A stretch of DNA of 64,000 bases from an uncultured Caldilineaceae bacterium (GTDB lineage: Bacteria; Chloroflexota; Anaerolineae; 4572-78; J111): the NCBI GenBank assembly GCA_964517605.1, contig CAZFCE010000016.1:18900-82899 (forward strand), in the 5' to 3' direction. This document shows positions 57,435 to 61,031 of the stretch, piece by piece (the stretch's first letter is position 1; each line of letters opens with the position of its first letter). The translations under genes were made by a program, and so were the position numbers. Below the pieces are notes generated by a model. The model worked only from the letters and a program-made list of their open reading frames with translations, was not told the origin of the DNA and made no database searches.

Positions 57435-57457
57435 ACCCACAAAAACCCAATAAAAAA

Positions 57458-57485
57458 GGCGACCCGCTGGATTGTGCGGGTCGCC
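57458..57485. terminator. Bidirectional rho-independent terminator between convergent genes
   Basis: ggcgacccgc-tggattgt-gcgggtcgcc flanked by aaaaaa and ttttt. Confidence 0.85.
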
Positions 57486-57507
57486 TTTTTGTTTTGTGGC
57501 TAATGGT

Positions 57508-58668
57508 TTAGCCGTGGCGGCGCACAAACCGGCCCATGCGTTCCAGCGCCTCTTCTATTTTTTCGTAGGCGGTGGCGTAAGAGCAGCGCACGTACCCCGC
57601 CCCGCCAATACCAAACGAGCGCCCCGGAATTACCGCCACGCGCTCTTCGGTGAGCAGCCGCTCGGCAAATTCGGCATCGTCCATGCCAGAGCCGCGCACG
57701 GAGGGAAAGGCGTAAAACGCGCCTTTGGGTTCAAAACATTTCAGGCCGATGCTGTTCAGCCCGTCCACAATCAGTCGCCGCCGCCGGTCGTACATTTGGC
57801 GCATTTCTTCAACCGCCGCATCGCCCTCTTTGAGCGCAGTCATGGCCGCATCCTGGGCTATAGTAGGGGCCGACATAATGGTGTACTGGTGAACCTTGTT
57901 CATGGCCTCCTGAATTTCGGGCGGAGCGGCGGCAAATCCCAGCCGCCAGCCGGTCATGGCGTAGGCTTTGGAAAAGCCGCCCAGCAAAATGGTGCGTTCC
58001 CACATGCCGGGCAGCGAGGCAAAGCAGACGTGTTCGGTATCGTACACCAGCCGGTCGTAAATTTCATCGGAGATAACCAGAATATCGTGCTTTTTAACCA
58101 CGGCGGCAATTTCTTCCAGGGTTTCGCGTTCTAGCACCGCGCCGGTGGGGTTGTTGGGGTAGCCAATCAACAGCGCCTTGGTGCGCCGGGTAATGGCGGC
58201 CTCAATTTCTTCGGCGGTCACTTGAAAGTTGTTTTCCACGCGGGTGGCAATCGGCACGGGGATGCCGTTGGCCAGGCTGACCTCGGCCATGTAGGATACA
58301 AAGCAGGGTTGCGGCACAATCACTTCGTCGCCGGGGTTGAGAATGGCGGTCATGGCCAGGTACAGGGCTTCGGACACGCCCACCGTTACCAGCAATTCCA
58401 GCGCCGGATCGTATTCAACGCCGTACAGCCGGTTTAAATGCTGCGAAATGGCGGTGCGTAGCTCGGTGGTGCCGCTGTTAGAGGTGTAGTGAGTGTTCCC
58501 GGCCCGCAACGAGCTAATTCCGGCTTCGAGAATGGCATTTGGCGTTACAAAATCCGGCTCGCCAATCCCCAGTGAAATCACATTTTCCATAGAGGCCGCA
58601 ATGTCAAAAAAGCGGCGAATCCCCGAAGGCGGAACTTGTTGAACTCGATTTGAAATGAATGAACGCAT
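57508..58668 (-). CDS. Class I/II PLP-dependent aminotransferase (aspartate/aromatic type)
   Basis: GIRRFFDIA, LGIGEPDF, YPNNPTG, and FSKAYAMTGWRLGF (PLP-lysine). Confidence 0.88.
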   Translation of the reverse strand: MRSFISNRVQQVPPSGIRRFFDIAASMENVISLGIGEPDFVTPNAILEAGISSLRAGNTHYTSNSGTTELRTAISQHLNRLYGVEYDPALELLVTVGVSEALYLAMTAILNPGDEVIVPQPCFVSYMAEVSLANGIPVPIATRVENNFQVTAEEIEAAITRRTKALLIGYPNNPTGAVLERETLEEIAAVVKKHDILVISDEIYDRLVYDTEHVCFASLPGMWERTILLGGFSKAYAMTGWRLGFAAAPPEIQEAMNKVHQYTIMSAPTIAQDAAMTALKEGDAAVEEMRQMYDRRRRLIVDGLNSIGLKCFEPKGAFYAFPSVRGSGMDDAEFAERLLTEERVAVIPGRSFGIGGAGYVRCSYATAYEKIEEALERMGRFVRRHG

Positions 58669-58725: not shown

Positions 58726-59832
58726 TTAGTTTATAACTAACGGCTGGTAGTCCAGATCAAAGGCTTCGGCCACCGCCCGGTAAGTGATTTTGCCCTGGTA
58801 GGTGTTTACGCCCAGCGCCAGCGCCTTATCCTGGCTAATCGCCTTTTCAAAACCAAGGTTGGCCAGTTTGAGCACATAAGGCAGGGTGGCGTTGGATAGC
58901 CCGTAGGTGCTGGTGCGCGGCACCGCGCCCGGCATGTTGGCCACGCAGTAGTGCAAAATGCCGTCCACGTAAAACGTGGGATCCGAGTGGGTGGTGGGCC
59001 GCGTGGTTTCTACGCAGCCGCCCTGATCTACTGCCACGTCTACAATAACGCTGCCCGGCTTCATTTGGGCAATCATTTCGCGGGTAACAAGTTTGGGCGC
59101 TTTGGCCCCTTTCACCAGCACCGCGCCAATCACCAGGTCGGCGCGTTTGACCGCCTCGGTGATAGAAAACGGGTTTGAGGCGATGGTGGTAAAGTTGCCG
59201 TGCATTACGTCGCTCAGGTAGCGCAGCCGGTCCAGGTTGATGTCCATCATTGTTACCTGCGCGCCCAGCCCCAGCGCCATTTTGGCGGCTTCGGTGCCAA
59301 CCACCCCGCCGCCAATTACCACCACACTGGCGGGCCGCACGCCCGGAATGCCGCCCATCAATTTACCGCGCCCACCGGCGTGCCGCTCCAGGTAGTGCGC
59401 GCCAATCTGAATGGACATGCGCCCGGCCACCTCGCTCATGGGGGTGAGCAGCGGCAGCGAGCCGTTGGGCAGTTCCACCGTTTCGTAGGCCAGGCCGGTT
59501 ACGCCGCTGCCGGCTACCGCCCGCGTCAGCTCTTCGTCGGCGGCCAGGTGCAAATAGGTAAACAGCACCAAATCGGGCCGCAAATAGGGGTATTCGGTGG
59601 GCAGCGGCTCTTTTACCTTAACCACCATATTGGCCTGCTGCCAAACTTCGGCGGCAGCCATAATTTTGGCCCCGGCTTCAATATAACGGGAATCTGAGAA
59701 GTAGCTGCCCTCGCCGGCCCCGGCTTCAACCAGCACGGTGTGGCCGGCCTCAACCAGTTGATGAACACCGGCCGGCGTCATTGACACCCGGTATTCGTTG
59801 TTTTTTATTTCTTTAGGTACGCCAACAATCAT
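58726..59832 (-). CDS. ald: Alanine dehydrogenase
   Basis: [47 protein letters not shown] (NAD fold), and [12 protein letters not shown] 59832 with RBS aaggaga. Confidence 0.93.
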
Positions 59833-59957
59833 TTTTACTTTTCTCCTTATTGATAGCTTCATAGCCTGGCAGGTTCACTTAATGTGAAAGCTGCGGTTTT
59901 TGTTTGGGTAACTTTGCCGGTTTCATCGTTGATGGGCAATAGTTTGTAACTATGGGG

Positions 59958-60968
59958 TTATTTGTTTAAATTGGTTAAAATATCTTCCGGGCCGTAAACC
60001 TTTACGCCGTAAACCTGCTGCATCAGTTTGGCCAGTTCCAGAGTGCGCTCGGCAATTGATTTTTGCTGCAAGCTGATAGAATTAATCAGGGCCAGGTTGG
60101 CGGCGGCGGCTCCGCCCAGCATGGCCTGTTTTTCCAGTTCGATGGCCAGATTTCGCAGGTAAATATTGATTTGTTTGATGATGCCCTCAATTTGGGTTTC
60201 GATCATCTGGATTGAAAAATCATCCAGGTTGGGCAAAATTGCGTTGTTGCCCCCGGCCTCGGCCTCGGCTTCCGGGGGAATGGCTACCGGCGCGGCGGCG
60301 GTTCGCGCTGCCTGGCCGCGCTGCACCTTTAAAAAATGTTCGGCGGCGGCAAACAGCCACTTTAGTTCGGTATTGATGCTATCCTGTTCGGCGGTGGTAA
60401 AGCAGCTCATTTGGGTAACAACTTTGGTTATTACCCCAATGCCGGTAGCCACGGCGCTCACTTCCTGCGCGGTGCCGCGCACGGTTCGGGCGGTGTTGCC
60501 GCGCCCGCGCCGGGCCGAACTATCTGCCGGAGTTGGCGCGGTGGCCGGCGGCGGGGTTTCTGCCGGTTGGCCCAGAACCTTTTTAATAACCGCCGCCAAC
60601 TTATCAAAATTCTCCGGCGAGGCGGTTTCTTTAAAATCAAGCCACTGAACGCCGGCCAGCGCGTATTCAAACATCACCGGGATTTCGGTGGGCCGCCACA
60701 GCAGCGGCACAATCGGTTTGGCATGGGTTTCGGCCAGGTCAACCTCTTTGCGGATGTTCGCCGATTGCACCGCGTCGGGTGAGAGCACCAGCACAAACAC
60801 CCGGCAATCCCTGATGCCCTCGGCAATGGAACTACGCCACTGGTCGCCCACTTCAATGCTTTCCTGATCAAACCAGGCTACAATGCCCCGGTTGGCCAGT
60901 TCGCGGTGCAGCCGGGTAACAAACTCAATATCTTTGCGGCGGTAGCTGATGAACACCTCAAATGGCAT
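59958..60968 (-). CDS. TIR-domain protein with Pro/Ala/Arg-rich linker and an unassigned helical C-terminal domain
   Basis: MPFEVFISYRRKDIEFVTRLHRELANRGIVAWFDQESIEVGDQW...VFVLVLSPDAVQSANIRKEVDLA follows the bacterial TIR_2 pattern, including the conserved Glu. The C-terminal ~190 aa is predicted helical by eye. ATG 60968 with RBS gggaga. Confidence 0.8.
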   Translation of the reverse strand: MPFEVFISYRRKDIEFVTRLHRELANRGIVAWFDQESIEVGDQWRSSIAEGIRDCRVFVLVLSPDAVQSANIRKEVDLAETHAKPIVPLLWRPTEIPVMFEYALAGVQWLDFKETASPENFDKLAAVIKKVLGQPAETPPPATAPTPADSSARRGRGNTARTVRGTAQEVSAVATGIGVITKVVTQMSCFTTAEQDSINTELKWLFAAAEHFLKVQRGQAARTAAAPVAIPPEAEAEAGGNNAILPNLDDFSIQMIETQIEGIIKQINIYLRNLAIELEKQAMLGGAAAANLALINSISLQQKSIAERTLELAKLMQQVYGVKVYGPEDILTNLNK

Positions 60969-61002: not shown

Positions 61003-61031
61003 ATTGTAACACAGGAATACCCTACCAACAA
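61003..61031 (-). promoter_or_regulatory. Candidate promoter of the TIR gene (TTGTTG-17 nt-TACAAT with TG extension)
   Basis: Minus strand reads ttgttggtagggtattcctgtgttacaat, about 35 nt upstream of ATG 60968. It overlaps the longer ORF start listed in the track, arguing against that start. Confidence 0.45.

Follow-up and report, generated by a model that had tools for sequence, protein, structure and literature searches.

TIR-X, a TIR protein with a hitherto unassigned helical module: a candidate assembly-activated effector in a housekeeping locus of uncultured Anaerolineae

Introduction

Why should a TIR domain of the type known from immune effectors be encoded next to alanine dehydrogenase, and what is the helical domain to which it is joined? 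This question is raised by a stretch of 64,000 nucleotides, here called the window, from an uncultured Caldilineaceae bacterium of the Chloroflexota class Anaerolineae (assembly GCA_964517605.1, contig CAZFCE010000016.1, positions 18,900 to 82,899). The window encodes a protein that we term TIR-X, in which an N-terminal TIR domain is connected by a linker to a C-terminal domain, module X. An earlier note, made from the DNA sequence, had regarded it as an orphan and had considered a stand-alone abortive-infection or signaling effector. Fusions of X with EAD7, nSTAND2 and a second new domain, Z, lead us to revise this placement and to assign TIR-X to the EAD/STAND network. We see about an even chance that TIR-X is a TIR NADase effector activated by assembly and that X serves as its homotypic assembly or adaptor module.

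The host genome is the genome to which the contig of the window belongs (5.67 Mb, 71 contigs). All genomes used for comparison are metagenome-assembled genomes (MAGs) that are 55-99% complete, and "not found" in them differs from "absent".

TIR-X consists of a TIR domain, a flexible linker and a compact helical module

The gene, its parts and further features are listed in Table 1. An AGGGAG ribosome-binding site is located at 60980-60975, with the ATG 6 nt further on, and the homologues of TIR-X all begin with MP(F/N)(E/D)VFISY at the same point. Because of this shared beginning we consider the ATG to be the start and reject the upstream in-frame TTG at 61031. As to the promoter of its own that the gene had been credited with, an extended -10 element can be read by eye, but a consensus promoter scan reported no minus-strand promoter at 61003-61031.

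Table 1. Positions of TIR-X and neighboring features in the window, and of the copies of domain Z in the host genome (contig:positions)
Feature	Position	Strand	Evidence or remark
TIR-X gene, 336 aa + TAA stop	59958..60968	-	open reading frame (ORF) and translation
TIR domain, residues 1-134	60567..60968	-	Pfam TIR_2, Foldseek, dN/dS
Glu75 codon, predicted catalytic glutamate	60744..60746	-	phmmer alignments to AbTIR, PdTIR, SARM1
Asn71 codon, at the position usually Trp, 4 residues before Glu75	60756-60758	-	
Pro/Ala/Arg-rich disordered linker, residues 135-170	60459..60566	-	low pLDDT, variable in homologues
Module X, residues 171-336, five helices and ordered Pro-rich loop	59961..60458	-	AlphaFold2 model
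H3-turn-H4 hairpin core of X (IYLRNLAIELEKQAMLGGAAAANLALINSISLQQKSIAE), resembling domain Z	60039..60164	-	hhalign, reciprocal profile matches
Promoter-like TTGTTG-17 nt-TACAAT with TG extension (TGtTACAAT)	61003..61031	-	by-eye reading; weak evidence
ald (alanine dehydrogenase), 95 nt downstream of TIR-X	58726..59862	-	Pfam AlaDh_PNT_N, AlaDh_PNT_C
Class I/II aminotransferase, last gene of the putative TIR-X-ald-aminotransferase unit	57508..58668	-	Pfam Aminotran_1_2
Strong bidirectional terminator-like hairpin, perfect 15-bp stem flanked by A and T runs	57453..57490	.	directly after the aminotransferase gene
Z locus L039	C46:6796-7863		host genome
Z locus L040	C7:175385-177274		host genome
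Z locus L041	C28:2-1954		host genome
Z locus L042	C13:2-2368		host genome
Z locus L043	C57:1083-3497		host genome
Z locus L044	C7:144940-145368		host genome
Z locus L045	C7:191268-195431		host genome
Eighth Z copy	C6:9784-9999		host genome, within an unannotated 615-aa ORF

The full-length AlphaFold2 model of TIR-X has a mean pLDDT of 83.1 and a pTM of 0.79 and falls into three parts. The first one matches Pfam TIR_2 (PF13676) with 94.5 bits against a cut-off of 28, covering residues 5-124 and profile positions 1-121 of 122. In Foldseek, its model matches the TIR structures of SARM1, AbTir, MyD88 and Hydra TRR-2 (probability 1.00, target TM-score 0.66-0.78), so that the TIR domain read from the sequence in the earlier note stands. 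The same applies to the glutamate that had been pointed out there as the position used for NAD+ cleavage: in phmmer alignments, Glu75 (NIRKEVD) corresponds to the catalytic Glu of AbTIR (NYELD) and of PdTIR (QKELD), and it falls inside the stretch aligned to the SARM1 TIR. Both Glu75 and Asn71 are nearly invariant across the TIR-X family. Judged by these alignments, the TIR domain of TIR-X probably cleaves NAD+.

The host genome has other TIR genes as well. Two tandem genes at C15:96483-104637 (L047, L048) encode proteins of 1372 and 1358 aa with an N-terminal TIR domain and many WD40 repeats; for the 1358-aa protein an NB-ARC match is also listed. In the latter, the position of the catalytic Glu is occupied by Gln (LIRRQW), which suggests that it is the inactive or sensor-type paralogue of the pair.

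The second part of TIR-X is the Pro/Ala/Arg-rich linker, which had been recognized from its composition and has a pLDDT below 50 at residues 135-168 of the full-length model. Its length and sequence differ between homologues.

The third part, module X, is helical as had been supposed, but with 166 residues it is shorter than the ~190 aa first allotted to it. Modeled with an X-only alignment of 20 sequences (A3), residues 171-336 (P0002) reached a pLDDT of 96.8 and a pTM of 0.91, with helices at module positions 2-14, 22-46, 80-113, 122-150 and 156-165 and an ordered Pro-rich loop. In the wider family represented by A3, Trp204 and Tyr320 are invariant, and the remaining columns conserved to at least 90% are Leu, Pro, Gly and Ile. 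As only hydrophobic and Gly/Pro columns are conserved to this degree, X lacks a catalytic signature and is predicted to be a non-enzymatic helical domain.

Orthologues of TIR-X in two genomes of the same genus share 73% and 66% identity with it. Compared with these, the ratio of nonsynonymous to synonymous substitution rates (dN/dS, ω) is 0.18-0.27 for the TIR domain, 0.21-0.22 for X and 0.23-0.26 for the whole gene, while the linker gives 0.45-0.64 and the neighboring genes 0.12-0.19; dS is near saturation and all these figures are approximate. TIR and X are both under purifying selection, and with values of 0.18-0.27 for the two domains the ORF is not a product of chance.

Database searches left X unassigned, in agreement with what had been noted at the outset. 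It has no match in Pfam at E≤10 apart from DUF7680 with 12.8 bits and none in NCBIfam, and X alone matched no PADLOC model at E≤1. A profile search of the PDB sequences gave nothing below E 0.29, Foldseek found no PDB structure at E≤1e-3 and TM-scores of at most 0.45, and the ESM Atlas contained no usable match. In a wide search with VIA-align, the best hits were the generic ones to IncA (Z 7.3) and to the Rx coiled-coil (CC) domain (Z 6.5). Since these values are below the meaningful level for helical bundles, we assigned no fold to X. We also rejected two candidate descriptions. X is not a simple coiled coil, as its model shows helices packed into a compact bundle, together with small beta bridges and an ordered Pro-rich loop; and the bSEFIR model of PADLOC (PDLC03957), which the full protein matches with 26.7 bits over a long envelope, was discarded because X alone matches no PADLOC model.

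Module X is shared with EAD7 and STAND NTPase proteins

When 1.84 billion representative proteins were searched exhaustively with phmmer, X had 100 relatives at E≤1e-3, 73 of them at E≤1e-10. The family comprises about 100 protein clusters, almost all in one Anaerolineae order, and TIR-X is thus an orphan in its host genome but not beyond it, X being fused elsewhere to EAD7, nSTAND2 and Z. A Pfam scan of 97 X-family proteins detected TIR_2 in 27, EAD7 in 10, EAD8 in one and nSTAND1/nSTAND2 NTPase models in one. Using purpose-built hidden Markov models for X, TIR, EAD7 and Z, we counted architectures in 124 X-family proteins and found X alone (26), TIR-X (24), EAD7-TIR-X (17) and EAD7-X (4), besides X-X, longer X repeats and several proteins in which an unknown N-terminal region precedes X. 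Individual cases are P0027, a TIR-EAD7-X protein with four X copies, and P0085, an nSTAND2-X protein. Within the family proteins, X is always terminal or in tandem.

Members of the same order show how variable the gene complement is. Four genomes (G015, G016, G020, G039) have TIR-X together with one to three tandem extra X genes, G033 has EAD7-X, and G035 contains a single ORF ordered Z-Z-TIR-X, in which Z takes the slot held elsewhere by EAD7. In G015, the product of the gene adjoining TIR-X (L056, C245:1828-3249) is 474 aa long, has X at its C-terminus and weakly matches CATRA-N (CASPASE and TPR Repeat-Associated N-terminal domain), with 18.7 bits, below the cut-off. This match hints at more ties of X to caspase-type systems.

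The most telling arrangement is found in genus g9. In all three of its genomes, a gene for an nSTAND2-X protein (680-692 aa) directly follows a gene for a STAND-PD40 beta-propeller protein (864-877 aa), and TIR-X is encoded apart from this pair. Neither NTPase bears an effector domain, and no shared module other than X could therefore recruit the TIR domain in g9.

The host genome is poorer in this respect. A search of its 71 contigs with the X profile found no second full X, and we found neither EAD7 nor an orthologue of the g9 nSTAND2-X protein in it, merely a weak NTPase similarity (E 1e-9). Those genomes of genus g6 that bear EAD7 on TIR-X have 15-22 EAD7 copies each, on proteins of many sizes. 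With 15-22 copies in these genomes and none found in the host genome, the presence of the EAD7 docking domain on TIR-X follows the set of adaptors that a genome contains. This is what the EAD coupling rule predicts, and it supports the placement of the family in the EAD/STAND network.

In the description given by Kaur et al. (PMC7159879), EADs are small helical modules that occur on core NTPases and on effectors, engage in homotypic contacts and have cognate copies that are correlated within genomes. X resembles them in being non-enzymatic, mostly alpha-helical, terminal and small, albeit with ~165 aa. An NTPase copy and an effector copy within one genome are present in g9 (nSTAND2-X and TIR-X), and P0085 is consistent with this, but the combination was not seen in the host genome or in most genomes with TIR-X. 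By the company that its domains keep, the TIR-X family belongs with the EAD/STAND conflict systems of multicellular bacteria (PMC7159879, PMC8195603).

Domain Z resembles the central hairpin of X

Apart from TIR-X itself, the X profile gave partial matches in the host genome that were confined to the H3-turn-H4 hairpin and revealed domain Z, an unannotated domain of ~100 aa with the motif NL.IL.EREA.YGG.AP.EL.NQI.DH..AI ... LRPLLV (alignment A4). Z has no match in Pfam at E≤5. There are 8 copies of it in the host genome. It is N-terminal on a NACHT protein of contig C57, two AAA_16-TPR proteins of contigs C13 and C28, one TPR protein, one FGE-sulfatase protein and a stand-alone protein of 143 aa, and is located near the C-terminus of a 1388-aa caspase-AAA_16-TPR protein. 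Among 56 genomes of the order, 26 contain Z, with up to 12 copies per genome.

Comparing Z and X with hhalign gave a probability of 95.9% and an E-value of 6e-9 over 40 columns, which are exactly the X hairpin. Conversely, the Z profile matches the hairpin inside several other X proteins with up to 27.7 bits. Z by itself resembles an EAD-type adaptor that has not been described before, and X appears to contain a Z-like hairpin. Neither domain matches the Pfam models of the defined EADs and bDLDs, and we found no description of X or Z in the two papers of Kaur et al. (PMC7159879, PMC8195603) that were searched. Both domains, being absent from Pfam and PADLOC and X also from NCBIfam, appear to be new.

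The surroundings of some Z genes were also recorded. At C46:6796-11905 of the host genome, the Z-FGE-sulfatase gene is followed by a SIR2_2 gene (PF13289, 73 bits, 333 aa) and a 1032-aa ORF, which together may be a small conflict-system operon; this is the sole SIR2_2 gene of the host genome and lies on another contig than TIR-X. A stretch of ~60 kb (C7:139444-198356) is densely filled with very large ORFs (1754, 1387, 2433, 1388 and 1003 aa) and contains three Z-bearing genes as well as a PQQ beta-propeller protein with a C-terminal X/Z-like hairpin (E 9e-6). It may represent a conflict-system island. Another genome (G017:C4:717201-718148) has one open frame of 5714 aa with at least four Z repeats in succession.

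TIR-X resides in a housekeeping locus

Pfam searches confirmed ald and the ABC-F gene as the neighbors of TIR-X. On the ald side, the aminotransferase gene completes the string, and on the other side the gene for the ABC-F ATPase is followed by that for CoaE. None of the genes adjoining TIR-X encodes a SIR2/SLOG, STING, STAND or Argonaute protein, as had been stated before, and the locus is not a defense island. The spacer between TIR-X and ald contains no terminator-like site and a strong one follows the aminotransferase gene, so that TIR-X, ald and the aminotransferase gene may form one transcription unit. This terminator-like hairpin sits between the convergent acyltransferase and aminotransferase genes. 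The DNA of the window occurs in three public runs, all of them DNA runs of one biofilm metagenome study, and no RNA run is listed.

A similar string recurs in related genera. In g1, g2, g5, g6 and g9, TIR-X is co-directional with, and lies a few to ~95 nt upstream of, genes for a sugar nucleotidyltransferase or UDPGP, ald and the aminotransferase; the first of these is absent from the string of g1. In g1, g5 and g6, the string is followed by a GT2 glycosyltransferase gene that is encoded on the other strand. The genes at the other flank of TIR-X run divergently from it; they are rpsO-pnp or, in the genus of the host, the ABC-F gene and coaE. Orthologues of the aminotransferase, 84-89% identical, adjoin TIR-X in 8 related genomes. 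The earlier note had spoken of a structural housekeeping family kept in synteny with ald across the clade as evidence against its reading. The synteny, with both ald and the aminotransferase gene, is indeed there, but X is not a housekeeping family. Even within the genus, the string varies: at L049 (G026:C4, 9444-11698) there is no ald and TIR-X is directly followed by the aminotransferase gene, whereas ald is present at L050. Hence, ald has been gained or lost at this locus.

In family f1, full-length TIR-X was found in ~21 of the 31 genomes, and in family f2 in 8 of 11. It was not found in 13 genomes of family f4, one of which has X alone. When 401 genomes of the class were sampled, X was detected in 9, eight belonging to f1 or f2 and the ninth giving a weak partial match. 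A sample of the phylum contained X in the host genome and otherwise weak partial matches in two genomes. Every named record is an uncultured MAG assigned to Anaerolineae, Anaerolineales or "Caldilineaceae", and no relative of X was found in phage, plasmid and viral-contig collections. X appears to be new and restricted to one Anaerolineae order. TIR-X evolves faster than its neighbors: its identities are 40-73%, while those of ald are 73-77% and those of the aminotransferase 84-89%.

A tree of 26 X modules contains two deep clades (99/98 support), with many forks poorly resolved. Both clades are found at the ald locus; G015 and G016 have them in tandem, members of genera g1 and g6 have the one or the other, and the four tandem X copies of G016 are spread over both of them. 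This distribution resembles that of an old tandem array that underwent differential loss, i.e., birth-and-death evolution. The nSTAND2-X clade of g9 is not sister to the TIR-X proteins of the same genus. A conflict-type effector stably resident in a housekeeping and possibly operonic context appears to be new.

Assembly, sensing or metabolism

TIR NADases form their active site only on oligomerization, and this general need for assembly is the reason why we regard X as a candidate control element. In the reading that we favor, the TIR domain would cleave NAD+ once several copies are brought together and would thereby deplete NAD+ or produce a signal, in the service of immunity or cell death. 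X, tethered by the flexible linker, would allow TIR-X to self-associate. Other X-bearing proteins, i.e., nSTAND2-X, EAD7-X and X-only proteins, could couple to TIR-X or regulate it where they are present: nSTAND2-X and EAD7-X might nucleate or bridge TIR-X, and X-only and X-repeat proteins might scaffold or dampen its assembly. In the host genome, TIR-X is the sole X protein found and has either lost the EAD7 docking domain or never acquired it. There, TIR-X would assemble alone, or the NACHT and AAA_16-TPR NTPases that bear Z would engage it by way of its Z-like hairpin. The latter option is speculative, these NTPases being the only candidate partners in the genome and candidates by remote hairpin similarity. 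Taken together, a homotypic assembly or adaptor module is the most economical reading of all X architectures.

Several findings weigh against this reading. A housekeeping block with possible co-transcription of ald is unusual for immune effectors. X is, with ~165 aa, twice the size of the described EADs (60-90 aa), and the best structural analogue, with a Z of 7.3, lends no support to a role in assembly. Classical EAD pairs are each other's closest relatives, which does not hold for X copies that are adjacent or share a genome. In about two thirds of the TIR-X genomes, including the host genome, there is no other X gene, so that an X-X partner in trans cannot be the general mechanism. The similarity of X and Z is remote and limited to 40 residues, and we therefore treat a functional link between them as hypothetical. 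Finally, the WxxxE motif is incomplete, as the position of its Trp is taken by Asn71 throughout the TIR-X family. This Trp reportedly matters for catalysis in AbTir and SARM1, and its replacement suggests that the activity or the product of TIR-X may differ. The other TIR domains of the host genome likewise have no Trp at this position, which argues for a feature typical of the clade and not for decay.

A first alternative, possible but in our view unlikely, is that TIR-X is a sensor and effector in one protein, in which X would perceive a phage or stress cue and release or assemble the TIR NADase in a stand-alone abortive infection response. That TIR-X is the sole X protein in most genomes would be expected of such a protein, as would the fact that no partner gene is conserved beside it; moreover, X is C-terminal and, in nSTAND2-X, fills the usual sensor position of STAND proteins. 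However, EAD7-X proteins without an effector, X-only genes and tandem repeats of X fit a sensor poorly, and nSTAND2-X would be left without any effector domain. In addition, X is the better-conserved half of the protein (ω 0.21) and does not show the diversifying pattern usual for sensors of invaders.

It is distinctly unlikely that TIR-X has instead a physiological or developmental role, in which it would head an operon with ald and the aminotransferase gene and act on metabolism, dormancy or filament differentiation by modulating NAD+ or a nucleotide signal. Arguments for it come from the locus: TIR-X is closely linked, in the same direction, to (sugar nucleotidyltransferase)-ald-aminotransferase in at least 5 genera belonging to f1, X occurs no more than a few kb from ald in families f2 and f4, and a terminator-like site follows the aminotransferase gene but none precedes ald. 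The inheritance looks vertical, with no matches in the phage, plasmid and viral-contig collections, and ω is ~0.2. Yet the gene directly downstream of TIR-X varies between ald, aminotransferase, NTP-transferase, UDPGP and further X genes, and thus no specific metabolic partner is constant. TIR-X was not found in about one third of the f1 and f2 genomes, and the alternation or coexistence of two deep X clades at the locus is a birth-and-death pattern. Furthermore, every one of the domain partners is a domain of conflict systems: EAD7, nSTAND2, and Z, which is carried by NACHT, caspase and FGE-sulfatase proteins. That the TIR domain merely assembles, as in MyD88 and TLR proteins, and forms with X a two-headed adaptor without NADase activity is very improbable: the family-wide Asn in place of the WxxxE Trp and the MyD88 TIR filaments among the top structural matches would fit, but the Glu is nearly invariant, the best matches in sequence and structure are the NAD hydrolases AbTIR and SARM1, and the loss of the Trp is shared with the other TIR domains of the host genome and hence typical of the clade.

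Significance

Bacterial, plant and animal immunity all depend centrally on TIR NADases, and the control of their assembly is the key mechanistic question. X offers a compact, confidently folded and undescribed candidate for a module that exerts such control. Being shuffled among TIR, EAD7, Z and STAND NTPases, it widens the adaptor vocabulary of the apoptosis-like networks that have been proposed for multicellular bacteria. Moreover, TIR-X provides one of the few examples of such an effector that appears to be vertically inherited in a housekeeping block, possibly on one transcript with an NAD-dependent enzyme, and this placement makes the balance between immune and physiological functions of bacterial TIR proteins testable.

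A bolder interpretation, which we consider rather improbable, is that X and Z form an unrecognized superfamily of homotypic, death-fold-like adaptors specific to filamentous Anaerolineae and that TIR-X is a chromosomally fixed, vertically inherited effector of cell death or NAD signaling co-transcribed with ald. If so, an immune-type TIR would have a tie either to filament differentiation or to the core metabolism of NAD and alanine, and the locus near ald would be a birth-and-death nursery for X genes. If X were merely a lineage-specific oligomerization tag, the result would be a useful annotation and two new domain families, but no new principle. The TIR domain itself is ordinary, and the logic of effector, adaptor and STAND NTPase in multicellular bacteria has already been published.

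Comparison with known systems

SARM1 (SAM-SAM-TIR) and MyD88 (Death-TIR) resemble TIR-X in that a linker joins the TIR domain to a helical homo-oligomerization or adaptor domain that controls TIR assembly or, in the case of X, would do so, and the TIR of SARM1 is the best structural match of the TIR of TIR-X. The role of X is proposed by analogy with these proteins. Neither the sequence searches nor the fold searches identified X as a SAM, Death-fold or ARM domain, the TIR domain of TIR-X is N-terminal and the domain order therefore reversed, and outside the TIR domain the likeness is an analogy without evidence of homology.

Thoeris ThsB, bSEFIR, PDC-S66, SAVED-TIR and retron-TIR systems share with TIR-X a TIR_2-type domain with the catalytic Glu, and their profiles give weak matches to the TIR part. 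TIR-X scores 20.2 against a cut-off of 21.2 with ThsB_TIR and 43.9 against 220 with ThcB4, and no ThsA, SAVED or reverse transcriptase gene adjoins it. From bSEFIR it differs in that X does not match the C-terminal part of that model.

The gene pair of g9 is reminiscent of plant TNL and CNL proteins and paired NLRs, as it suggests a sensor NTPase (STAND-PD40) and a helper (nSTAND2-X) with the TIR domain acting in trans. In contrast to the plant proteins, the TIR domain is on a separate small protein encoded elsewhere, and the similarity of X to the CC domain of Rx is non-significant (Z 6.5).

Against the EAD-coupled TIR effectors described by Kaur, Burroughs, Iyer and Aravind (eLife 2020, PMC7159879; 2021, PMC8195603), TIR-X stands out by its housekeeping, operon-like block, in which it is not placed beside an NTPase, and by a host genome in which no EAD7 or X partner was found. 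It shares with them the combination of a TIR domain with small non-enzymatic helical modules, the presence of EAD7 on its orthologues, the occurrence of X on an nSTAND2 NTPase as well as on effectors, and a filamentous host from the Chloroflexota.

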